Shown: piece by piece, positions 24,977-36,277 of the stretch | How the letters are laid out: every line of letters starts with the position of its first letter | Position numbering within the stretch: the first letter of the stretch is position 1 | Source: an uncultured Ectothiorhodospiraceae bacterium | GTDB lineage: Bacteria > Pseudomonadota > Gammaproteobacteria > UBA9214 | Length of the DNA stretch: 64,000 bases | Assembly (NCBI GenBank): GCA_947258845.1 | Contig: CAMYJZ010000001.1 | Coordinates: 226-64,225 of the forward strand | Direction: 5' to 3' | The notes under the pieces: generated by a model | What the model was told of the DNA's origin: nothing | Databases searched by the model: none | Seen by the model: the letters and a program-made list of their open reading frames with translations, nothing else | Program-made: the position numbers and the translations under genes

Positions 24977-25369
24977 ATGAAAATGCATATCAAAGTTCCT
25001 TCTCTGGTGGCCACCGTTCTGGCCATCTCCCTGGCCGGCCCGGGCGCGGCCCTGGCGGGTGACAAGCACCGCAACTATGACCGGCATGACTACGGTTCCC
25101 ACCAGGACCGGCAGCATAACCGGAATCACTATTATTCGCGGGACCAGTATGGTGACCGGCACCACTACAAGCAGCGCCGGCATGCCAAGGCCCACAAGTA
25201 CGACAGGCATCACTACAAGCATCAAAAGAAGCACCGTTACAACCGGCACAGCTACGCTTACAAATACGATGATGACGACGACGAGAAGCTGCTGATCGGA
25301 CTGGTGCTGGGTGGCCTGATCGGTTATGCCATCAACAATGCCTATGACGCGGACATCTATGACCAATGA
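24977..25369 (+). CDS. secreted His/Tyr/Arg/Asp-rich low-complexity protein with C-terminal glycine-zipper helix
   Basis: Signal peptide MKMHIKVPSLVATVLAISLAGPGAALA; repeats of DRH/HYK/RHH...; DDDDDE; C-terminal LLIGLVLGGLIGYAI (GxxxG zipper). Confidence 0.65.
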   Translation: MKMHIKVPSLVATVLAISLAGPGAALAGDKHRNYDRHDYGSHQDRQHNRNHYYSRDQYGDRHHYKQRRHAKAHKYDRHHYKHQKKHRYNRHSYAYKYDDDDDEKLLIGLVLGGLIGYAINNAYDADIYDQ

Positions 25370-26789: not shown

Positions 26790-27404
26790 TCAATTGTTTG
26801 GAGGTTGGGCCGGCAGATCTGAAAGGGCGGGTATCCAGGCTGTCAGGGGTGTCCCGGTCTGGCCGGTTTGATCCAGAACATAAAGGCCATCCGGTTCGAG
26901 TTGTTCGATCAGGCGTTCCCAGAGTGACCCGGGACTGGTGCTGAATACGGCCTGCGGGTCGCCTTCAATGACATGCCAGCTATCGCCCTGCAGCTCGCGC
27001 GCGAGTTGCCCTGCCGACCAGCTCGCGTGCCCCACATAGAAATGCAGTTCATCCGGCGGCTTGTTCTCGGCCAGCAGCCGGTTCATCACATCGCGGTCGG
27101 CGCTGATATAGATATCGCCGACGACGCGCCTTATCAGCCCGGTCTGCCCGGTGTTACGCATCAGCATCATGATCTGACCGTGTTGCACCGGGCCGCCGAA
27201 ATACAGGGAATACCTGGCGCCGACCTGCTCCCTGATGCCCGTTATGGCCTCGGATAAATTCAACCCGCTGGGGCGGTTCACGATGAGGCCGGCAGAGCCT
27301 TCCGGTCCGTGTTCCAGCAGGTAGATCACGCTGCGACTGAAGTGGGGATCCCGGAGATCGCGTTGTGCGACCAGGAACATGCCGGCCGCCGGCTGCGTTT
27401 CCAT
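26790..27404 (-). CDS. yqgE: YqgE/AlgH family protein (UPF0301)
   Basis: ...FLVAQRDLRDPHFSRSVIYLLEHGPEGSAGLIVNRPS... matches the AlgH family signature. An alternative longer start at 27509 would add a signal-peptide-like segment. Confidence 0.75.
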   Translation of the reverse strand: METQPAAGMFLVAQRDLRDPHFSRSVIYLLEHGPEGSAGLIVNRPSGLNLSEAITGIREQVGARYSLYFGGPVQHGQIMMLMRNTGQTGLIRRVVGDIYISADRDVMNRLLAENKPPDELHFYVGHASWSAGQLARELQGDSWHVIEGDPQAVFSTSPGSLWERLIEQLEPDGLYVLDQTGQTGTPLTAWIPALSDLPAQPPNN

Positions 27405-27539
27405 TGTCCCCGGCGGTGCGGGGTCGCTGATCGCCGGCTTTGATGCGACGGCGACCGGCTCCGGCAGCAGGCACAGGCAGGCCATAATGATGAGAGGGCG
27501 CAGGTGCATGGTGAGAAGTATAGTGAACTCTCTGCAATT

Positions 27540-27818
27540 ATGACGGGGCCATGGGGTGTCCGGATGATTCCGATCCACGAGCTGCTCAACCGGATCCGCT
27601 GGGACCGGGATTTCGGCCGGGCGGACTTCATTATCGGCTACTACGACCGGGTGACTGATGAAATCATCCGGGTGCCGCTGGCCGAACTGTATTTCGAACC
27701 CGATGACCACTTTTCCTTCGAGCTGGTCGATCACGCGGGTGAGCTGCACAGCATCCCGCTGCACCGGATTCGGGAGGTGTTCCGGGACGGGGTGCTGATC
27801 TGGCTGCGCGGGAACTGA
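27540..27818 (+). CDS. small conserved hypothetical protein (possibly DUF504-like)
   Basis: ORF track 27504..27818 trimmed to an internal ATG; divergent from yqgE; coding-like composition. Confidence 0.5.
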   Translation: MTGPWGVRMIPIHELLNRIRWDRDFGRADFIIGYYDRVTDEIIRVPLAELYFEPDDHFSFELVDHAGELHSIPLHRIREVFRDGVLIWLRGN

Positions 27819-27839: not shown

Positions 27840-29960
27840 TCAGCGGCTGGCGGCGAAGGACACCCGGAATTCCGCGCCGGGGTTCTGATTGACGATATCG
27901 ACCTGCCCGTCCATTGCCACTACCAGCTGGTGCACCAGGGCCAGGCCGATGCCGGTGCCCACGGTCTCGCGGGTGAGTTCGTTCTCGGAACGGTAGAACA
28001 GCCTGAAGATCTTTTTCATCTGGTCGCGGGGGATGCCGGGACCGTAATCACGCACCCTGAACAGCACGCTGCCGTCCTGCCGGAGGGTGCAACCAAGGTC
28101 AATGGCGCGGCGTTCGGCCCGGGCGGAAAACTTGATAGCGTTGTCCACCAGGTTGATGATGATCTGGGTGAAATAATCGGGATCGACCCGGACGATCGAG
28201 CGGGCGGCGTCGTCGTTGCTGTCCAGGGTGAATTCGAAGCCCGCCCGTTCGACCTGGGCACCGATCCGGGAACGCACGGTGTCCAGTAATTCACCGGCGC
28301 TCACGGGCTTCAGGTCCACCTCCAGGTCATTGCGCGTCATGCGCGCCAGTTGCAGTACGTTGGTAATCAGGCGTGACAGGCGTTCACTCTCGTCGAAGAT
28401 ATAGTCGTAGTAGACCTGTTTCTTTTTGTCATCGGCCCAGCCCTCGCGCAGCATCTCGCCATACAGGCGTATCGAGGTCAGCGGGGTCTTGAGTTCGTGG
28501 CTGACGGCGGAGACGAAATCCTGTTGCTGACGGGCCAGGTCGATCTGCCCGGCACCCAGCCGGTACATCAGATAGAAACCGCCCAGCAACACCAGCGCGA
28601 GGACGGCGGCGATCCAGCTGATCAGGCTGCTGCCGGGCGCGGCGGGCAGCCGGGTGATGCTGAAGATCAGTTCCATCCCGCTAAGGGGGGCGGACAGGCG
28701 CCGCTGGTAAAGCAGTGCGCCACGCAGTTCCTCGGCGCTGGACAGGTAGCCGCGCGCGGCCTGGCCGGTGAAGGCCGTGAAGACATTGCCCTGGTAGGCG
28801 ACAATCAGGTCACTCATCTGCGCCAGGGCGGTCTCGTTGAAGGCGGCCTGGATGACACCCCGCAGGAACGGCTGCTGTTCGATCAGTGCGCCCTGGACGT
28901 AGCGTTGCCCGTCCCGCCAGACCCGGCGGAACAGTACGAAGTGACCGCTGTCTAGCAGACTGATCTCGAAGGGGTCGATCTCGCTCTCGAAGGTGTGGAT
29001 GCGCAGCGCCGATTGTGGTGCGTGCGGCACGGCGGTTTCGGCCTCGAGCACCGGCGCGGCTGGCAACGACCCCGGCTCGGTCAGCGGTTCCGGCAGGGCG
29101 CTGCGCTCCCGGCGGGCGGTGCGTTTTTCCAGCAAGGGTGCCTGGGCGCCGGCAACTTCGGCTTGCCGTTTCTCGGCGGGCAGGGCCTGGTAGCGGGAGT
29201 CCAGCTTCAGGTCCTCGACGCGCCCCAGTGCCGTGCTGTGCTTCTGCTTGCGCTCCTGTTGCAGCGGGGCGGCGGTCTTCTCGTTGAGGCGGTCGAAGCT
29301 GGCCTGGCCCGCCGGCTGTTGTTGCGCCAGGCGTGGCGGAGGGGGCGCGGCATCGTCCAGGGAGAGCTGCGCCGCGCCGTCCCTGTCTGCTCCCCCCGTG
29401 GCAAGACTGTCGCTGCGCATGCCGGATGGCGCGTATGCTGCCTTACCGCCGGCCGCGTCGGATTCTGTGTCGCGAACCAGCCGGTTGCGGCCGAGGATCT
29501 GTTGCATGCGCCCGGCAAGCACCAGTCGCCGGTCGAGCTCCTGTGCGGAGATGCCGTAGGCCGCCGGTTCCACGCCCGCCTGCGGCAGCAGGGGGGTGCT
29601 GAAACCGCCCTCGGCATCAACCTGAAAGTGGCCGATCAGTCCGGGGATGGCGCTGCTGACCGGATAGTCCGACAGCGGTGAACGCTGCACGAAACTGGCG
29701 GCGGGGTCACCGGCGATGACCAGGAAGGCATAGTCACTGAAGCGGTGCGTTTCCTCTGCCTCGAGCAGCTGGCGGTAGCGCTTGTCGATGCGCGCGGCCA
29801 GTTCCTCCGCCAGCACCCGGTGCTGGTGAAACACCTCCCACTTCAGCTGGCTGTAGGCCTGGTAGACCAGGATACCGGCGGGAATGGCCAAAGCCAGAAA
29901 GAAAACCGCCAGCCAGCGGCGCAGGCGTTTACGGTCCAATCCGGTGAGCACGGTCTGCAT
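27840..29960 (-). CDS. sensor histidine kinase with large periplasmic domain
   Basis: N-terminal TM, long Pro/Ala/Gln-rich periplasmic region, second TM, H-box HELKTPLTSI, N-box LVDNAIKFS, G-box DYGPGI / GTGIGL. Confidence 0.85.
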   Translation of the reverse strand: MQTVLTGLDRKRLRRWLAVFFLALAIPAGILVYQAYSQLKWEVFHQHRVLAEELAARIDKRYRQLLEAEETHRFSDYAFLVIAGDPAASFVQRSPLSDYPVSSAIPGLIGHFQVDAEGGFSTPLLPQAGVEPAAYGISAQELDRRLVLAGRMQQILGRNRLVRDTESDAAGGKAAYAPSGMRSDSLATGGADRDGAAQLSLDDAAPPPPRLAQQQPAGQASFDRLNEKTAAPLQQERKQKHSTALGRVEDLKLDSRYQALPAEKRQAEVAGAQAPLLEKRTARRERSALPEPLTEPGSLPAAPVLEAETAVPHAPQSALRIHTFESEIDPFEISLLDSGHFVLFRRVWRDGQRYVQGALIEQQPFLRGVIQAAFNETALAQMSDLIVAYQGNVFTAFTGQAARGYLSSAEELRGALLYQRRLSAPLSGMELIFSITRLPAAPGSSLISWIAAVLALVLLGGFYLMYRLGAGQIDLARQQQDFVSAVSHELKTPLTSIRLYGEMLREGWADDKKKQVYYDYIFDESERLSRLITNVLQLARMTRNDLEVDLKPVSAGELLDTVRSRIGAQVERAGFEFTLDSNDDAARSIVRVDPDYFTQIIINLVDNAIKFSARAERRAIDLGCTLRQDGSVLFRVRDYGPGIPRDQMKKIFRLFYRSENELTRETVGTGIGLALVHQLVVAMDGQVDIVNQNPGAEFRVSFAASR

Positions 29961-29964
29961 TAGC

Positions 29965-30666
29965 CTAATCCGTTAGCAGCCGGTAGCCCGCGCCGCGCAC
30001 GGTAACCAGGTGGCGCGGTTGTGACGGGTCGGGTTCGATCTTGCGGCGCAGCTTGGCGATGTGGATGTCGACGGTCCGGGTTTCGATGTTCAGGTCCCTG
30101 GCGTAGCCCCAGACCCGGGTCAGCAGTTCCTCGCGCGAGACCGGCCGCTCCGAATTGGCATTCAGGTACTGCAGTATGTCCATTTCGCGGCGCGTGAACG
30201 CAAGGTTTTCCCCGGCGCGTGTGCCCTGCAGGTTGCGGCAGTCGATCTCGATAGCGTTACCCAGGTGGATCCGGTGGTTCATCCCGACACCGATGCGCGC
30301 ACGCCGCAGTACGGCCTGGATACGCAGCATCAGCTGGGCTACCGAAAAGGGCTTGGCGATGTAATCGTCGGCGCCCAGTGACAGGCCCTGGATGATGTCT
30401 TCATCACTGGTCTTGGCCGTCAGCATGATGATGGCCTGCTCGGGGTCGCGTGCGCGGATCCGGTTGCAGATGTCGAAGCCGTTCATGCCGGGCAGCATGA
30501 CATCGAGCAGGATGAGGTCAAATTGCCCGCTCACGGCCTTGTCCAGTCCCGCGTTGCCTTCAGCCGCGGAGTCGGTTTCGTAGCCGTGGAACACCAGCAC
30601 ATCCATCAGGCCGTCGCGGATGGCGGCCTCGTCCTCGACAACAAGAATACGGATTTTGCGTTGCAT
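29965..30666 (-). CDS. OmpR-family response regulator
   Basis: RILVVEDE...receiver D, winged-helix C-terminus ...RHLVTVRGAGYRL. Start trimmed to MQRKIRILVVEDE. Confidence 0.85.
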   Translation of the reverse strand: MQRKIRILVVEDEAAIRDGLMDVLVFHGYETDSAAEGNAGLDKAVSGQFDLILLDVMLPGMNGFDICNRIRARDPEQAIIMLTAKTSDEDIIQGLSLGADDYIAKPFSVAQLMLRIQAVLRRARIGVGMNHRIHLGNAIEIDCRNLQGTRAGENLAFTRREMDILQYLNANSERPVSREELLTRVWGYARDLNIETRTVDIHIAKLRRKIEPDPSQPRHLVTVRGAGYRLLTD

Positions 30667-30890
30667 GGTCTTTGCTCGTCCGCTATCCCGAAACGGTTGA
30701 ATGTTCAAGACGGTGCGCCGCCTGCATGACGCCGTGCTGATTAAAGCCTATCAGCTTGTTCCGACCGCGGCATGTAAATATTTTGTAAATCATGCACCGG
30801 AAGTTTTACCAAAGCCTGTCTACCTGCAAGTCGGCGTGGCTCCTAGACTGAATTCACAGTCAACAGAACCACACGGCAAGGAGGTGAACC

Positions 30891-31427
30891 ATGGCATTAA
30901 TAACCCGCGTATCACGACTGTTTCGGGCCGATATCCACGCGGTCCTGGATCGTATCGAAGAGCCCGATGTGTTGCTGCGGCAGGCCGTCCGGGAAATGGA
31001 GGAGGCGCTCGCCCGCGATGAACAGCGTATCAAGGTGCTGACCCGTGAACACGAGCAGCTGGTCAGCCGACATCGGGACATACAGCAGTCCCTGGAGGGA
31101 ATCGAGGCAGAGCTGGATGTCTGCTTCGACTCCGGCAAGGAGGACCTGGCCCGGGCACTGATCCGGCGCAGGTTGGAGGCACAGCGCTTTATACAGTTTC
31201 TCACCCGCAGGCACGAGACGCTGGGAACGACACTGGCCGGACTCAGGGACCGGGTCGGTGAAAACCGGACGCAGCTGGAGAGCATGCGCCAGAAGGTCGA
31301 ACTGCTGGCCGAGGACGAGGCACCTGCCCGTCACGAAGAGGCCCGGGCCACCCCGGACACCTCGGTACGTGATGCGGACGTGGAGGTGGCCTTTCTGCGT
31401 GAACGGCAGAAGCGGGGGCTGTCATGA
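30891..31427 (+). CDS. PspA/IM30 (ESCRT-III-like) family protein, short form (178 aa)
   Basis: MALITRVSRLFRADIHAVLDRIEEP... against E. coli PspA [25 protein letters not shown]...; EDLARALI against EDLARAAL. Strong AAGGAGGTG RBS. Confidence 0.75.
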   Translation: MALITRVSRLFRADIHAVLDRIEEPDVLLRQAVREMEEALARDEQRIKVLTREHEQLVSRHRDIQQSLEGIEAELDVCFDSGKEDLARALIRRRLEAQRFIQFLTRRHETLGTTLAGLRDRVGENRTQLESMRQKVELLAEDEAPARHEEARATPDTSVRDADVEVAFLRERQKRGLS

Positions 31428-31993
31428 AACGCCCGAACTTCATGGAAGGGGTCGCGCTGGCCCTGGGTGTGAGTGTCCTTGCCAGCGTGTTGTTCACGGT
31501 CCTGGGGCCGGTGTTCGGCAGCACTGCGATCCTGCGTTTGCTGATCGCCACCAGCAGCCTGGTCTATGTCATCTATCTGCTGAGTCGCAGTAGCGAACGC
31601 GTGGGACGAGTCACCACTCTGGCCGCCTGGGTCGTGGCGGCGCTCGCACTCTGGTGGCTGGAGCCGCCGCTGCTGCTCTATGTACTGGGGCATGCCGGAT
31701 TCATCTGGCTGGTCCGCTCGCTGTACTTCCATGCCGGCGTGCTCTCTGCGCTGGCCGACCTGGGCCTGAGCGGCCTGGCCCTGGTGGCAGCGGTCTGGGC
31801 GACGCTGCAGGCAGGCAGCCTGTTTCTCAGCCTCTGGTGTTTCTTCCTGGTGCAGGCGCTGTTTACCGGTATCCCGAAGCACATCGGGCGCACGCCCCCG
31901 AAACGGCGGCCCGATCCCGATGACGAAGACCGTTTCCAGCATGCCCACCGTGTTGCGGAAGGGGCGTTGCGCAGAATCACATCAGTCAATTAA
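31424..31993 (+). CDS. polytopic membrane protein (4-5 TM), translationally coupled to the pspA-like gene
   Basis: ATGA overlap with the upstream gene; multiple hydrophobic helices; basic C-terminal tail. Confidence 0.65.
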   Translation: MKRPNFMEGVALALGVSVLASVLFTVLGPVFGSTAILRLLIATSSLVYVIYLLSRSSERVGRVTTLAAWVVAALALWWLEPPLLLYVLGHAGFIWLVRSLYFHAGVLSALADLGLSGLALVAAVWATLQAGSLFLSLWCFFLVQALFTGIPKHIGRTPPKRRPDPDDEDRFQHAHRVAEGALRRITSVN

Positions 31994-32013
31994 ATCTTCA
32001 GGAGGTAAATCAA

Positions 32014-33234
32014 ATGAAATCGAGAATCATTGCATTGGCATTATTCATATCCACCGCCGCCGGCGTGGCCCTCTATCCGGCCTACCAGAGTGCGGGGACC
32101 CTGATTCAACCGGCAGTCGATCCAGTCACGATTAACCTGCCGCCCGTTGATCCGCAGACCAATGAGCGGCCCCGGGTAGAGGTCGTGTTCGTGCTGGACA
32201 CCACCGGCAGCATGGGCGGGCTGATCCAGACCGCCAGGGAGAAGATCTGGTCGATTGCCACCACCATGGCATCGGCGCAACCGGCGCCCGACATCCACAT
32301 GGGCCTGGTTGCCTACCGTGACCGTGGTGATTCCTACGTGACCCGGGTGGTGGACCTCTCGGATGACCTGGATTCCGTGTATGCCAGCCTGATGGATTTT
32401 CGGGCCGAGGGTGGTGGTGACGGGCCGGAAAGCGTAAACCAGGCCCTGCATGACGCGCTCCACAAGATCTCCTGGAGCCAGGACAGGCAGGCCTATCAGG
32501 TGGTGTTCCTGGTCGGTGACGCACCGCCGCACATGGACTACCAGGACGACATCAAGTACCCGGAGACCCTGGCGGCCGCCACGGCCAGGGGCATTGCGGT
32601 GAATACCATCCAGTGCGGCCATAACGGTTCGGCGAAGCAGGACTGGGAACGGATTGCCGGGCTCGGTCACGGTCGCTACTTCCAGGTGGAACAGGCGGGC
32701 GGTGCCGTGGCGATCGCCACGCCCTTCGACGAGAAACTCGCGCGCCTCTCGGCCATGCTGGACGCTACGCGGCTTTACTACGGCACGGACGAGGAGAAGG
32801 CAAAACAGCGCCTCAAGCTGGATGCGTCTGACAAGCTGCATGCGGCCTCATCGGTCGAATCCCGCGCCCGCAGGGCGGCATTCAATGTCTCGGCGAGCGG
32901 CGCGTCCAACTTTCTCGGTGATGGCGAGCTGGTCGATGATGTGACCAGCGGGCGCATCGAGCTGTCCGGTATCGACAGGGACAGCTTGCCGGAACCGCTG
33001 CAGGCCATGGCGCCGGTAGAGCAGGAGGCGTTGATCAGCGAGACGGCCGCGCGTCGTGACACGCTACGGCGCGAGGTACAGGAGCTGGCGGAGCAGCGCT
33101 CGGCCTACCTTGAAAAGAAGGTCGATGAACTCGGCGGGGCGCGGGATTCGCTGGACCACAAGATCTACAGCGCGGTGCGGGAGCAGGCCGGCAAGCTGGG
33201 TCTGCATTACGAGGCCGACGCACCCGACTACTGA
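32014..33234 (+). CDS. secreted von Willebrand factor type A (vWA) domain protein with C-terminal coiled coil
   Basis: Signal peptide MKSRIIALALFISTAAGVA; MIDAS-like VVFVLDTTGSMGG; strong AGGAGGT RBS. Confidence 0.8.
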   Translation: MKSRIIALALFISTAAGVALYPAYQSAGTLIQPAVDPVTINLPPVDPQTNERPRVEVVFVLDTTGSMGGLIQTAREKIWSIATTMASAQPAPDIHMGLVAYRDRGDSYVTRVVDLSDDLDSVYASLMDFRAEGGGDGPESVNQALHDALHKISWSQDRQAYQVVFLVGDAPPHMDYQDDIKYPETLAAATARGIAVNTIQCGHNGSAKQDWERIAGLGHGRYFQVEQAGGAVAIATPFDEKLARLSAMLDATRLYYGTDEEKAKQRLKLDASDKLHAASSVESRARRAAFNVSASGASNFLGDGELVDDVTSGRIELSGIDRDSLPEPLQAMAPVEQEALISETAARRDTLRREVQELAEQRSAYLEKKVDELGGARDSLDHKIYSAVREQAGKLGLHYEADAPDY

Positions 33235-33333
33235 GTCGGTTCGTCCCGTGCACGGCCCGGTGGCAATACCGGGCCGTGCGCTTGACGGCTATAATCACAC
33301 CCGACAGCAGCAAGTGCAGAACAGGATCAGCTT

Positions 33334-33711
33334 ATGAGCGACATGATGGCGGTTTTCCTCAACGGGATCGCGCAGCTGGAATATGACCGCAGCAGGCCGC
33401 TGCCGGATCACCAGGCGGTCTACCTGGAGAAGATGGATGCGAGGATGGCGGCAGGCATCCGTGTCGGCGAGGAGACCATCGAACACCCCGACGAGAACCA
33501 GCGTGCCCGGTTCGTGGCCGCCAACCTGCTGCATGCCATCAAGAGTAATAATGAATCCATGGCCGCCGCCCTGTGCAGCTATCTGGCGACCCGCCTGCCC
33601 GAGCTGAAGCAGGTCAGGTTCGATGAAAACGGGGGTGACGTCGCCATCGAATTAATCTTTGACCAGGACTACCGCAAACAGGTCGCTGTTGATTTTACCC
33701 ATCTCCACTGA
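33334..33711 (+). CDS. hypothetical protein (125 aa)
   Basis: ORF track; coding-like composition. Confidence 0.5.
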   Translation: MSDMMAVFLNGIAQLEYDRSRPLPDHQAVYLEKMDARMAAGIRVGEETIEHPDENQRARFVAANLLHAIKSNNESMAAALCSYLATRLPELKQVRFDENGGDVAIELIFDQDYRKQVAVDFTHLH

Positions 33712-33919
33712 GGCCTGATCGGCCTGGACCCGGTCCATGTTCTTGCGTCACAGCAGCCTCGCTAGGCTGAGCCCTGTGCAGTAGTACCGGCACGCCCCGC
33801 GACGAGCCTGCCCGGTTAAAGAAATACCCTGCCGGACCGATGTTTTCCCTGTACGTAAATATGCGTATTCCTGTTTCAGGCAGGGATATCTGCTTCAGTA
33901 TCAAAAAGGAAAGAAAATT

Positions 33920-36277
33920 GTGATCGGTGTCACAAAAACACACCCGGGGACGGACTGTATTGGGTCCCTCATGCCGGAGAAGCGTCTGCACCGGCTGCTC
34001 GTATCCTTCGTAGTGGCCCTGCTGTATGTGGCCTCGGCCGAGCTGGGCCTGCAACTGGCGGTGGTGCACGGCAACGTGACGGCCGTGTGGCCGCCCACGG
34101 GTATCGCCCTGGCGGCCCTGCTGCTGCTGGGGACCTGGGTGTGGCCCGCCATCGCGGCGGCTGCCTTCCTGGTCAACCTCCTGAACGATACACCGTGGCT
34201 GACCTCACTGCTGATAACCGCGGGCAATACCCTGGCCTTGCTGGTGGGTGCGCGCCTGGTCAGTCATTTCGCCGGGGACTGCAACCCGCTGGGGAGCTGC
34301 AAGGGCCTGGTGATGCTCGCGGCCGGGGGTGCCATGGCCGCCACAACCCTGAGCGCCACGATCGGTGTAACTGCACTGGTCGCATCGGGGCTTGCACCGG
34401 TCGATGGCTCCGCAGAGATCTGGCTGACCTGGTGGCTGGGCGACGCCGCGGGCGTGATCGTGTTTGCCCCCCTGTTGCTGGCCTGGGGACGGAATCCGGT
34501 AGTCAGCTGGAAAGGCTCGCGGATGATTGAGGGCCTTGCCTTGGCGAGTACCCTGATCATCGTCTCACAGATCGTGTTCAGCGGCTGGTTTCCGACCGGC
34601 GCCGGCAATCATCCGCTTGCCTTCATGATGCTGCCGGTCCTGCTCTGGTCGGCAATGCGTTTCGGTCGGCGTGGTACCACCCTGGCGATTGTGACCGTGT
34701 CACTGCATGCGATCTGGGGCACGGTTCAGGGATACGGCCCATTCGTGCATCACGATCTGAATGAGTCCCTGTTGATGTTGCAGGCCTTCATGAGCGTTAC
34801 CTGTCTGACTTCCCTGATGCTGGCCATCGTATTGCATGAACGCAAACTCGCGCAGCAGCGACTCGTACAACACCAATCTGGAATTGAGCGGCGCATAGCA
34901 GACAGGACCCGGGACCTGGTGGATGCAAACAGGCAATTGCTGCGGGAGATGCACCTGCGTGCACAGGGTCATGATATGGTGGTCAGCCTCGGGCGGATAC
35001 TCGAGGAGTCGCGCAATGAAATCTACATATTTGATGCAGATAACCTGAAATTCATCAACGTCAACCAGGGGGCGCGCCTTAACCTCGGTTATACCATGAG
35101 CGAACTGGCCGGTATGACACCGGTCGATATCAAGCCTGAAATGACCCGGAAAGCATTTGAACGGCACCTGGCGCCGCTGCGGGACGGCAGCCTGGAACGC
35201 CTGTATTTCGAGACCGTGCACCGCCGCAAGGATGGCAGCCGCTACCCGGTGGAGGTGCACCTGCAGCTTGCCAGTCTCGGGCCGCGGCGCGTGTTTACAG
35301 CCATGATTTTGGATATCAGCCAGCGCCGCGAGTTCGGTGTGAAGCTGCGGCAGGCGGCAACCGTTTTCGATAACTCCAACGAAGGTGTCATGGTGACTGA
35401 CGCCGACCGTAATATCACTGCAGTCAACCGGGCATTCACCGGGATTACCGGGCACGACGGGGCGGACCTGCTCGGCAAGAAGACCGATGTCCTGAGATCC
35501 GACCGGCACGGCCAGGCGTTCTTTGAAGGCATCTATGCCGAGCTGCACGAACGCGGGCGCTGGCAGGGCGAGATCTGGCACCGTCGCGAAAACGGTGAAG
35601 CCCACCCGCACTGGACCAGTATCAGCGAGGTCCGCAATGAAGCCGGATCGGTCACCAATTACGTGTATCTGTTTACCGATATCGCCGCCATAGAGGGCAT
35701 CCAGGCGCGCGTGAAGTACCTGGCCTACCATGATCCATTGACCCATCTTCCCAACCGGACACTGTTTGACGACCGTCTCACCCACGCCCTGCACAACACC
35801 CGGCGATCCGGCAAGCGGGTGGCCGTGCTGTTCCTCGATCTGGATGGCTTCAAGGATATCAATGACAGCCTTGGCCACCTTTCGGGCGACGAATTGCTGC
35901 AGCAGGTGGCAGAGCGGCTGGTAATCTCGGTACGCGAGACAGATACCGTCACGCGCTACGGTGGCGATGAGTTCACCATCATTCTCGAGGGAATAGAGGC
36001 CATGGAGAACGTGGTCAGTATCTCCGAGAGGATCCTCTACGAGATTCAAAAACCCTTCATCATCGGCGGCCATGAGCGGCGAATCTCCACCAGCATCGGG
36101 GTTAGCGTGTATCCCGAAGATGGCCGGGACCAGCATGCCCTGATCGAACGTGCCGATGCCGCCATGTACCTGGCGAAGCATGCTGGCGGCAACCGCTTCA
36201 GCTTCTACCTCGACACCCCGGCGCCGCTTGCAGGCCGGGACCGTGCAGGGGATACTGAAACCGGTCCGCGTCAATAA
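33920..36277 (+). CDS. MASE1-PAS-PAS-GGDEF diguanylate cyclase
   Basis: N-terminal multi-TM MASE1-like region, two PAS-like segments and GGDEF (RYGGDEFTIIL). A GTG start at 33920 or ATG 33971 (MPEKRLH) is possible. Confidence 0.85.
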   Translation: MIGVTKTHPGTDCIGSLMPEKRLHRLLVSFVVALLYVASAELGLQLAVVHGNVTAVWPPTGIALAALLLLGTWVWPAIAAAAFLVNLLNDTPWLTSLLITAGNTLALLVGARLVSHFAGDCNPLGSCKGLVMLAAGGAMAATTLSATIGVTALVASGLAPVDGSAEIWLTWWLGDAAGVIVFAPLLLAWGRNPVVSWKGSRMIEGLALASTLIIVSQIVFSGWFPTGAGNHPLAFMMLPVLLWSAMRFGRRGTTLAIVTVSLHAIWGTVQGYGPFVHHDLNESLLMLQAFMSVTCLTSLMLAIVLHERKLAQQRLVQHQSGIERRIADRTRDLVDANRQLLREMHLRAQGHDMVVSLGRILEESRNEIYIFDADNLKFINVNQGARLNLGYTMSELAGMTPVDIKPEMTRKAFERHLAPLRDGSLERLYFETVHRRKDGSRYPVEVHLQLASLGPRRVFTAMILDISQRREFGVKLRQAATVFDNSNEGVMVTDADRNITAVNRAFTGITGHDGADLLGKKTDVLRSDRHGQAFFEGIYAELHERGRWQGEIWHRRENGEAHPHWTSISEVRNEAGSVTNYVYLFTDIAAIEGIQARVKYLAYHDPLTHLPNRTLFDDRLTHALHNTRRSGKRVAVLFLDLDGFKDINDSLGHLSGDELLQQVAERLVISVRETDTVTRYGGDEFTIILEGIEAMENVVSISERILYEIQKPFIIGGHERRISTSIGVSVYPEDGRDQHALIERADAAMYLAKHAGGNRFSFYLDTPAPLAGRDRAGDTETGPRQ

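Follow-up and report, generated by a model that had tools for sequence, protein, structure and literature searches.

The window analysed here is a stretch of 64,000 nucleotides from an uncultured Ectothiorhodospiraceae bacterium (GCA_947258845.1, contig CAMYJZ010000001.1), and all coordinates refer to it. Between positions 27840 and 33234 it carries a five-gene cassette. A two-component system (TCS) is divergent from an operon encoding a short protein of the PspA/IM30 family, an inner-membrane protein with six predicted transmembrane (TM) helices, and a putatively exported protein with a von Willebrand factor A (vWA) domain. The cassette looks like an undescribed variant of the PspA-based envelope-stress systems. 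All five open reading frames (ORFs) appear in the ORF list of the window at the positions assigned to them in the original prediction, which had been made from the letters of the DNA. They are given below, together with the hairpin that follows the last of them.

27840..29960, minus strand: sensor histidine kinase (HK) of 706 residues, with HisKA and HATPase_c domains (Pfam)
29965..30666, minus strand: OmpR/PhoB-type response regulator (RR) of 233 residues, with Response_reg and Trans_reg_C domains (Pfam)
30891..31427, plus strand: short PspA/IM30-family protein of 178 residues (PF04012)
31424..31993, plus strand: six-TM inner-membrane protein of 189 residues, as judged from hydropathy, charge and an AlphaFold model
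32014..33234, plus strand: vWA protein of 406 residues, putatively exported (signal peptide or signal-anchor), matching VWA_4, VWA and VWA_2 (Pfam)
33248..33281, plus strand: GC-rich 15-bp hairpin, 14 nt past the stop codon of the vWA gene, with no U-tract

The pspA-like gene and the TM gene are translationally coupled. The predicted ATGA, in which the stop codon of the first overlaps the start codon of the second, is present at 31424-31427, and the overlap is kept in 73 of 75 loci. The gap between the TM and vWA genes measures 12-25 nt in most loci, and GGAGG ribosome-binding sites lie 5' of both the pspA-like and the vWA genes. The hairpin at 33248..33281 (-39.8 kcal/mol, z = -5.7) is probably the 3' end of the operon. 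The whole interval 27840-33711 had been proposed as one module, and this holds for the five genes, up to 33234. It does not extend to the ORF at 33334..33711, which is kept only in loci L001-L003. The end of the module is placed at 33234 because this 125-residue ORF and the MASE1-PAS-GGDEF gene beyond it are common only to the three closest relatives.

Conservation of the cassette was followed in two independent sets of loci. In a scan of one genome per species, 282 stretches encode a relative of the short PspA, and the best 80 loci were analysed. A second set of 80 loci comes from metagenomes and was seeded with a distant homologue of the TM protein, 40% identical to the protein in the window; its presence counts cover the loci whose flanking DNA is long enough. 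In essentially all 80 genome loci, wherever the contig reaches, the genes follow the same order with near-identical spacing, HK and RR on the minus strand and PspA, TM and vWA on the plus strand. In the metagenome loci, the pspA-like gene lies upstream of the TM gene in 60 of 60 cases and the vWA gene downstream in 42 of 42, while the RR is found in 37 of 41 and the HK in 21 of 22. The predicted synteny of the three operon genes with a divergent TCS is thus near-universal, and the arrangement is far beyond chance. In all, the five-gene cassette holds together in about 140 related gammaproteobacterial sequences of sediment and marine origin. The linkage of the genes is obligate. When all ORFs of 81 loci are clustered, no further conserved neighbour appears, and the remaining clusters that recur consist of shadow frames of the five genes.

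The cassette is a vertically inherited, self-contained set of five genes of sediment and marine Gammaproteobacteria. Carriers among the best 80 loci belong to Ectothiorhodospiraceae (the closest, at up to 84% identity), Sedimenticola, Thiodiazotropha, Thiogranum, Arenicellales, Woeseiaceae and Chromatiales. Two carriers, Sedimenticola selenatireducens and Thiogranum longum, are named and apparently cultured organisms. This distribution also bears on a literal understanding of "phage shock", by which the module would serve in anti-phage defence or travel as cargo of a mobile element. The flanking genes do vary between genomes, and the module is compact and self-contained, as such cargo would be. 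Against this, it is confined to related gammaproteobacterial lineages with graded identity, and no integrase or defence genes are conserved nearby. PADLOC returns only weak generic matches to HATPase, REC and coiled-coil regions and none for the TM or vWA proteins, and the TM protein is matched by none of 72,556 plasmid and 50,697 phage records. A defence or mobile origin is highly improbable and was rejected on these negative PADLOC, plasmid and phage searches.

Several loci depart from the common picture. Cassettes at 51-65% identity occur in metagenome-assembled genomes at L024, L032, L038 (labelled Halobacteria archaeon), L075 (Bathyarchaeota archaeon) and L026 (Enterobacteriaceae); the archaeal and Enterobacteriaceae labels most likely reflect mis-binning or mislabelling rather than transfer. 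The bin MFD03551.bin.2.20 holds two copies of the cassette on different contigs. At L099, L101, L106, L109, L110, L027 and L063, the operon trio and its upstream GTAAA-N6-GTAAA box stand without a complete TCS immediately upstream. The regulator lies about 4 kb away in L106, none is found within 7 kb in L027, and L063 has a kinase fragment and no regulator. A small clade has the trio and the repeat with no adjacent TCS, which shows that the kinase need not be encoded beside the trio. In L076, the region between the RR and the pspA-like gene spans about 3.3 kb, against 150-490 bp elsewhere, with the repeat box still beside the pspA-like gene, which suggests an insertion.

PspA, Vipp1 and ESCRT-III form a universal family of membrane-repair and membrane-remodelling proteins, and current models of their action rest on polymers built through helix α5. 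The first protein of the operon had been identified as a truncated PspA/IM30, to be checked with a PspA_IM30 hidden Markov model. The check bears the identification out, with a PF04012 match at E=1.1e-20 and 74.6 bits against a gathering cut-off of 33.9. The match is a single stretch covering profile positions 4-151 of 220, and for this reason the protein is taken as truly truncated. Its database relatives number in the thousands; the best 120 are nearly all 176-179 residues long, and all match PF04012. From residue 1 to about 140-152, the family profile is collinear with Vipp1 and PspA of Synechocystis and also with the hairpin fragment of E. coli, PspA(1-144) (4whe), with E-values against the solved Vipp1 and PspA structures from 2.5e-10 to 2.2e-08. 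The amphipathic helix α0 (hydrophobic moment 0.45) and the α1-α3 hairpin are kept, while most of α4 and all of α5 are lost. After the hairpin come a variable linker at about 140-155 and a conserved tail, PDxSVRDEDVEVAFLREKQKR, which shows no alignment with the α4/α5 region of the Pfam profile and has a weak amphipathic moment (0.27). A single invariant cysteine, Cys78, lies in the motif LDVCF.

The loss of α5 bears directly on how the short PspA may act. The contact between α5 and the hairpin (a domain swap, Interface 1) is described as the defining feature of polymerisation in the superfamily (PMC8281802), and Vipp1 without α5/α6 behaves as a monomer or dimer and forms no polymers (Liu et al. 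2021, PMC8281802). Because α5 is absent here and Vipp1 without α5/α6 fails to polymerise, the short PspA alone probably forms no classical rings or rods, unless its tail or a partner replaces α5. It may therefore differ in its action from polymer-forming effectors such as LiaH or PspA. The lack of α5 favours a role as a membrane-bound hairpin adaptor or sensor, and this is probably what the protein is, rather than a classical ESCRT-III-like polymer.

The opposite possibility is that the short PspA still builds ESCRT-III-like assemblies and, through them, patches or remodels the inner membrane, with the vWA protein serving separately in periplasmic repair or adhesion. The missing helix would then be replaced by the PspA tail or supplied in trans by the C-terminal helix of the six-TM protein. 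Such an effector would draw on an intact α0 and hairpin collinear with Vipp1 and PspA. The conserved tail of about 20 residues looks helical and sits on a flexible linker, a geometry that could permit a domain swap, and the pairing of a PspA homologue with a small membrane anchor has a precedent in LiaI-LiaH (PMC11237479). Three points make it unlikely: the match to the Pfam profile ends at position 151 with the tail unaligned to α4/α5, the tail is weakly amphipathic (0.27), and removal of α5/α6 abolished the polymers of Vipp1 (PMC8281802).

The second protein of the operon had been read as having four to five TM helices. This count is replaced by six, as predicted from hydropathy, charge distribution and the AlphaFold model. 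In the predicted topology, the N-terminus and the tail are cytoplasmic, with positive-inside charges. The C-terminal part consists of a basic, disordered cytoplasmic linker and then a conserved amphipathic helix, DRFQxAHRxAExALRKL. A nearly invariant cysteine, Cys139, lies in TM6 within the motif WCFF. The family is large and unannotated, with 1233 clusters at 90% identity and 946 at 50%. An exhaustive profile search returns only stand-alone proteins of about 185-195 residues and no fusion that would hint at function. The protein in the window has no Pfam or NCBIfam match. Over 40 members of the family, the Pfam matches are scattered and below threshold (for example DUF2615 in 10 of 40, best E 8.6e-4), and no Pfam identity was accepted. 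Searched with 39 homologues, the protein matches neither PspB nor PspC even at E<=1, and it matches none of LiaI, LiaF or DUF4097 (Toastrack).

The third protein begins with a hydrophobic segment preceded by lysine and arginine and followed by a proline-rich variable linker. This segment and the positive-inside rule point to export, and the protein would accordingly lie in the periplasm. It had been described as a secreted vWA protein with a metal-ion-dependent adhesion site (MIDAS) and a coiled-coil tail. The vWA domain stands, with its Rossmann-like fold, at about residues 54-235. The tail is really a conserved folded helical domain, at about residues 239-394, with a predicted local distance difference test (pLDDT) score of 85-95. 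It includes one 39-residue helix, and no recognised relative of it was found. D62-x-T64-x-S66, D136 and D169 resemble a MIDAS and do not vary. They form a putative metal site, a variant of DxSxS...T...D in which D136 is assigned to the canonical Thr position. The loop GDAPPHMDY beside the metal site is also invariant. An invariant metal-site face with this loop implies a specific conserved ligand.

The vWA protein has divergent orthologues, and in L072, at 27% identity, the whole architecture is kept. In the sub-clade formed by L045, L056, L072, L082, L103, L104 and L117, the vWA proteins are 25-31% identical to that of the window. Where it was examined (L045, L072, L103 and L104), the MIDAS reads DTSSS or DTSGS, not DTTGS, and in a pairwise alignment of L072 an asparagine apparently replaces D169.

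On the minus strand, the kinase was predicted to sense the periplasm, and its architecture agrees with this. Besides the HisKA and HATPase_c domains, it has a basic N-terminus and two predicted hydrophobic segments, at about 17-37 and 445-467, which flank about 410 residues. The DHp (HisKA) and HATPase_c domains follow directly after TM2, with no HAMP domain. The predicted periplasmic region has two conserved lobes, one N-terminal and one C-terminal, with a hypervariable, low-complexity insert between them. This insert, at about residues 165-320 (28900..29400 on the minus strand), is rich in Ala, Pro, Gln, Glu, Lys and Arg. Every clade keeps three short motifs within it, FD(R/K)L, GRVEDLKL(D/E) and R(K/R)E(R)..LPE, with the invariant acidic residues D223, E249/D250 and E285. 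From the sequence, they resemble short linear motifs, and the insert a disordered periplasmic linker.

The regulator is of the OmpR type, as claimed, with Response_reg and Trans_reg_C domains, and is 62-87% identical across loci. Its ORF extends to a TTG at 30708; the start is placed at the ATG at 30666 because the orthologues are conserved at 233 residues (MQRKIRIL...). Neither HK nor RR reaches the cut-off of any NCBIfam equivalog, whether PhoR/PhoB, CpxA/CpxR, BaeS/BaeR or another named system.

The kinase motifs and the vWA face raise the possibility that the operon products are accessories of the sensor. In such a feedback arrangement, the vWA protein would dock on the motifs of the HK insert, and the hairpin PspA, held by the six-TM protein, would modulate HK from the cytoplasm. 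This would give a self-limiting loop like those of CpxP-CpxA, LiaF-LiaS and PspA-PspF. It would account for three acidic motifs (D223, E249/D250, E285) within an otherwise hypervariable insert, for the invariant metal-site face with its GDAPPHMDY loop, for a short PspA that matches the hairpin fragment without the polymerisation helix α5, and for the tight co-occurrence of HK with the trio. The protein contacts it calls for are conjectural, and it has against it the small clade in which trio and repeat box occur with no TCS beside them. The loci with divergent vWA proteins have kinase inserts with matching clade-specific changes, such as FDKL and NVLP, which shared ancestry explains equally well. 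As a sign of interaction, the co-variation of HK motifs and vWA was set aside as not decisive, since the pattern follows phylogeny. A feedback sensor of this kind is unlikely. A further step, in which a non-polymerising PspA clamped by its acidic tail to the basic C-terminal helix of the six-TM protein and a vWA domain gripping the acidic motifs of the HK insert with its metal site together report damage at both faces of the membrane to HK, is distinctly unlikely. If true, such a trans-envelope sensor would put an ESCRT-III-family hairpin and a vWA domain to a new use in a bacterial two-component sensor.

The intergenic region 30667..30890, in which a binding site of the RR was to be sought, contains a conserved tandem repeat. 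Aligning the sequences upstream of the pspA-like genes reveals this repeat and three further conserved non-coding blocks.

30773..30790, plus strand: tandem direct repeat TGTAAAT-ATTT-TGTAAAT, core GTAAA-N6-GTAAA, 11-bp period
30803..30810, plus strand: block GTTTTACC, which carries the repeat core in inverted form (reverse complement of GGTAAAAC)
30817..30823, plus strand: block TGTCTAC, whose GTCTA is the inverted complement of TAGAC in block CCTAGACTG
30842..30850, plus strand: block CCTAGACTG, containing a -10-like TAGACT about 45 nt 5' of the start codon

The operator-like repeat occurs once in the whole window. Its distance to the pspA-like start codon downstream is about 104-140 bp across loci, and 110-118 bp in most. 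It is present within two mismatches in 63 of 69 genome loci, and its core GTAAA-N6-GTAAA is found in all 55 metagenome loci with at most one mismatch over its 10 bases; the G, T and A positions vary little or not at all. The repeat is kept where no TCS adjoins, for example in L027 and in the clade of L099, L101, L106, L109 and L110. Direct repeats of 7 bases with an 11-bp period (7 + 4) are the standard binding layout of OmpR/PhoB-family dimers. A CpxR consensus of GTAAA-N(4-8)-GTAAA is quoted in PMC5063474, and the core of the repeat falls within it, as a resemblance of sites only. On the strength of the repeat layout and of the match to this consensus, the tandem repeat is a likely candidate for the binding site of the adjacent RR. 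An OmpR-type tandem repeat in the shared intergenic region supports two-component control, under which the adjacent RR would regulate the pspA-like operon and probably its own divergent operon too.

The offset of the block GTTTTACC relative to the first base of the repeat is fixed at +31, and the block may be a third half-site or a promoter element. The CCTAGACTG block is conserved in the clade of the window and not in the most distant clade. Several assignments of -35 and -10 roles to GTTTTACC, TGTCTAC and CCTAGACTG were weighed, and none was retained, as none has canonical spacing. The original prediction found no sigma-54 (PspF-type) promoter, and no conserved -24/-12 element is seen. With the GG and GC dinucleotides required, the best -24/-12 candidate in the window matches 8 of 12 specified bases, at a non-conserved position. 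Rfam returns no significant RNA family in the leader or the operon.

Among known systems, LiaRS-LiaIH of Bacillus subtilis (liaIHGFSR) comes close in plan. In both, a TCS stands beside an operon of a PspA homologue and a small putative membrane anchor, with no sigma-54 or PspF. In contrast to Lia, the RR is of the OmpR type rather than the NarL/LuxR type, and the kinase has a periplasmic sensor of about 410 residues, whereas LiaS is intramembrane-sensing. The cassette lacks LiaF, LiaG and Toastrack, and its membrane partner has six TM helices and no LiaI or LiaF match. Against the LiaH model NF045984 the short PspA scores 40.8 bits where the cut-off is 380, and α4/α5 are missing. The cassette also adds the putatively exported vWA protein and has a divergent gene arrangement. 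At the level of sequence, the conserved tandem repeat and the divergent arrangement support a Lia-like logic in which a TCS would induce a PspA homologue and its membrane anchor.

The enterobacterial Psp locus (pspF-pspABCDE) likewise places a PspA-family gene beside a membrane-protein gene, divergent from regulator genes. Its PspA shares the N-terminal amphipathic helix and hairpin, so that the short PspA corresponds approximately to the E. coli PspA(1-144) fragment (4whe). Unlike Psp, the cassette has no PspF, sigma-54 promoter, PspB or PspC, its HK and RR are the sole regulators that are conserved, and the C-terminal third of PspA is missing; the scores are 44.1 bits against a cut-off of 242.95 for TIGR02977 and 36.6 against 336 for NF007974. 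CpxAR resembles the cassette in its OmpR-family RR, in a kinase with a periplasmic sensor and in the candidate operator, which lies within the CpxR consensus (PMC5063474). It differs in that the sensor of the cassette is unrelated and much larger and that CpxP is absent. On the CpxR model, whose cut-off is 341, the regulator reaches 123.9 bits; on the CpxA model, with a cut-off of 486, the kinase reaches 96.1.

With the Vipp1/IM30 and PspA polymers, the short PspA shares a homologous N-terminal region of about 150 residues (α0-α3), but not α5, which is described as essential for polymer formation (PMC8281802). The vWA protein invites comparison with BatA/BatB of the Bacteroides aerotolerance operon. 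In the 81 loci, however, no MoxR ATPase, DUF58, TPR or other Bat gene is conserved nearby, the C-terminal helical domain is different, and the PspA partner is unique to the cassette. Because no ATPase is conserved nearby, the cassette is not a vWA operon of the Bat/MoxR type. By these comparisons, the cassette belongs to neither Psp, Lia nor CpxAR. Its exclusion from Psp and Lia follows from the low equivalog scores, the absence of PspF, PspB, PspC, LiaF and Toastrack, and the OmpR-type RR. The combination of a PspA, a membrane anchor and a vWA protein under a TCS had been held to be undescribed, and full-text literature searches of incomplete coverage found nothing relevant. The text and one supplementary file of the 2024 census of phage shock protein (PSP) systems (PMC11237479) contain no mention of vWA or von Willebrand.

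On balance, the cassette is best taken, with middling confidence, as a lineage-specific module for surveillance and protection of the envelope and inner membrane, Lia-like or Psp-like in kind. The proposed sequence of events begins outside the cytoplasm, where the large novel periplasmic domain of HK, placed there by its predicted topology, would detect an extracytoplasmic cue. HK would phosphorylate the OmpR-type RR, which would bind the GTAAA-N6-GTAAA repeat and switch on the pspA-like/TM/vWA operon; both the binding and the sign of regulation are presumed. The ATGA overlap would provide matched amounts of the short PspA and the six-TM protein, which could then form an inner-membrane complex. 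In this complex, the six-TM protein would be the anchor, its basic cytoplasmic C-terminal helix possibly pairing with the acidic conserved tail of PspA, and the amphipathic helix α0 of PspA would contact the bilayer. The vWA protein, once exported, would remain on, or close to, the outer side of the inner membrane, where its invariant metal-site face may bind a conserved acidic ligand.

Several points weigh against this reading. The term "envelope stress" is an analogy drawn from the name of the PspA family, and the regulation, the topology, all the protein contacts and the physiological role are inferred. Export of the vWA protein depends on how its N-terminal hydrophobic segment is read. The AlphaFold model of the TM protein is of moderate confidence (pLDDT 71.5), and no informative structural relative of that protein was found. 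The HK sensor has no relatives in Pfam and no significant ones among PDB sequences (profile of 29 orthologues, best E=0.28). A generic scan of 30600..33950, which takes in the shared intergenic region, finds no canonical sigma-70 promoter. Taken as a whole, the earlier interpretation of the locus is supported, having come through both the PspA_IM30 search and the comparison of gene order.

Several further ORFs lie around the module. The ORF at 33334..33711 (plus strand, 125 residues) lies just past the operon hairpin and has no Pfam or NCBIfam match. A perfect TATAAT stands at about 33290-33295, about 39 nt upstream of its start. As it is conserved only in L001-L003, at 79-82%, it is regarded as a separate gene. 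The MASE1-PAS-GGDEF diguanylate cyclase gene at 33920..36277 (plus strand) follows downstream and is syntenic only in the same closest relatives; a functional link to the cassette is unlikely. On the other side, the ORF at 24977..25369 (plus strand) encodes 130 residues with an N-terminal hydrophobic segment, a middle part extremely rich in His, Arg, Tyr, Asp and Lys (HRNYDRHDYGSHQDRQHNRNHYY...) and a hydrophobic C-terminus rich in Gly, Leu and Ile. It has no Pfam match and could be a metal-binding or low-complexity envelope protein. The AlgH-like (DUF179) ORF at 26790..27764 (minus strand) has a long N-terminal extension over an opposite-strand ORF of 104 residues at 27504..27818 (plus strand), which has an MJ1316 domain. 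Since the AlgH domain match begins at residue 136, the true start is probably much further downstream.

In conclusion, this is a clearly delimited module that occurs widely within a single ecological and phylogenetic group and lends itself to direct testing. Three of its features are noteworthy: a natural PspA without α5, an obligate and unannotated six-TM partner, and a putatively exported vWA protein together with a kinase that has a novel sensor. The large family of PspA proteins without α5, always accompanied by the same membrane protein, is a natural test of what the hairpin does without polymerising. Neither an exported vWA protein nor a kinase with this uncharacterised sensor figures in the main text and the one supplementary file of the 2024 PSP census (PMC11237479), and both would widen the repertoire of PSP partners. 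The invariant GTAAA-N6-GTAAA candidate operator permits regulon prediction and reporter assays. Should the cassette be only a lineage-specific envelope-stress operon, it would still provide a useful annotation of two "hypothetical" protein families.

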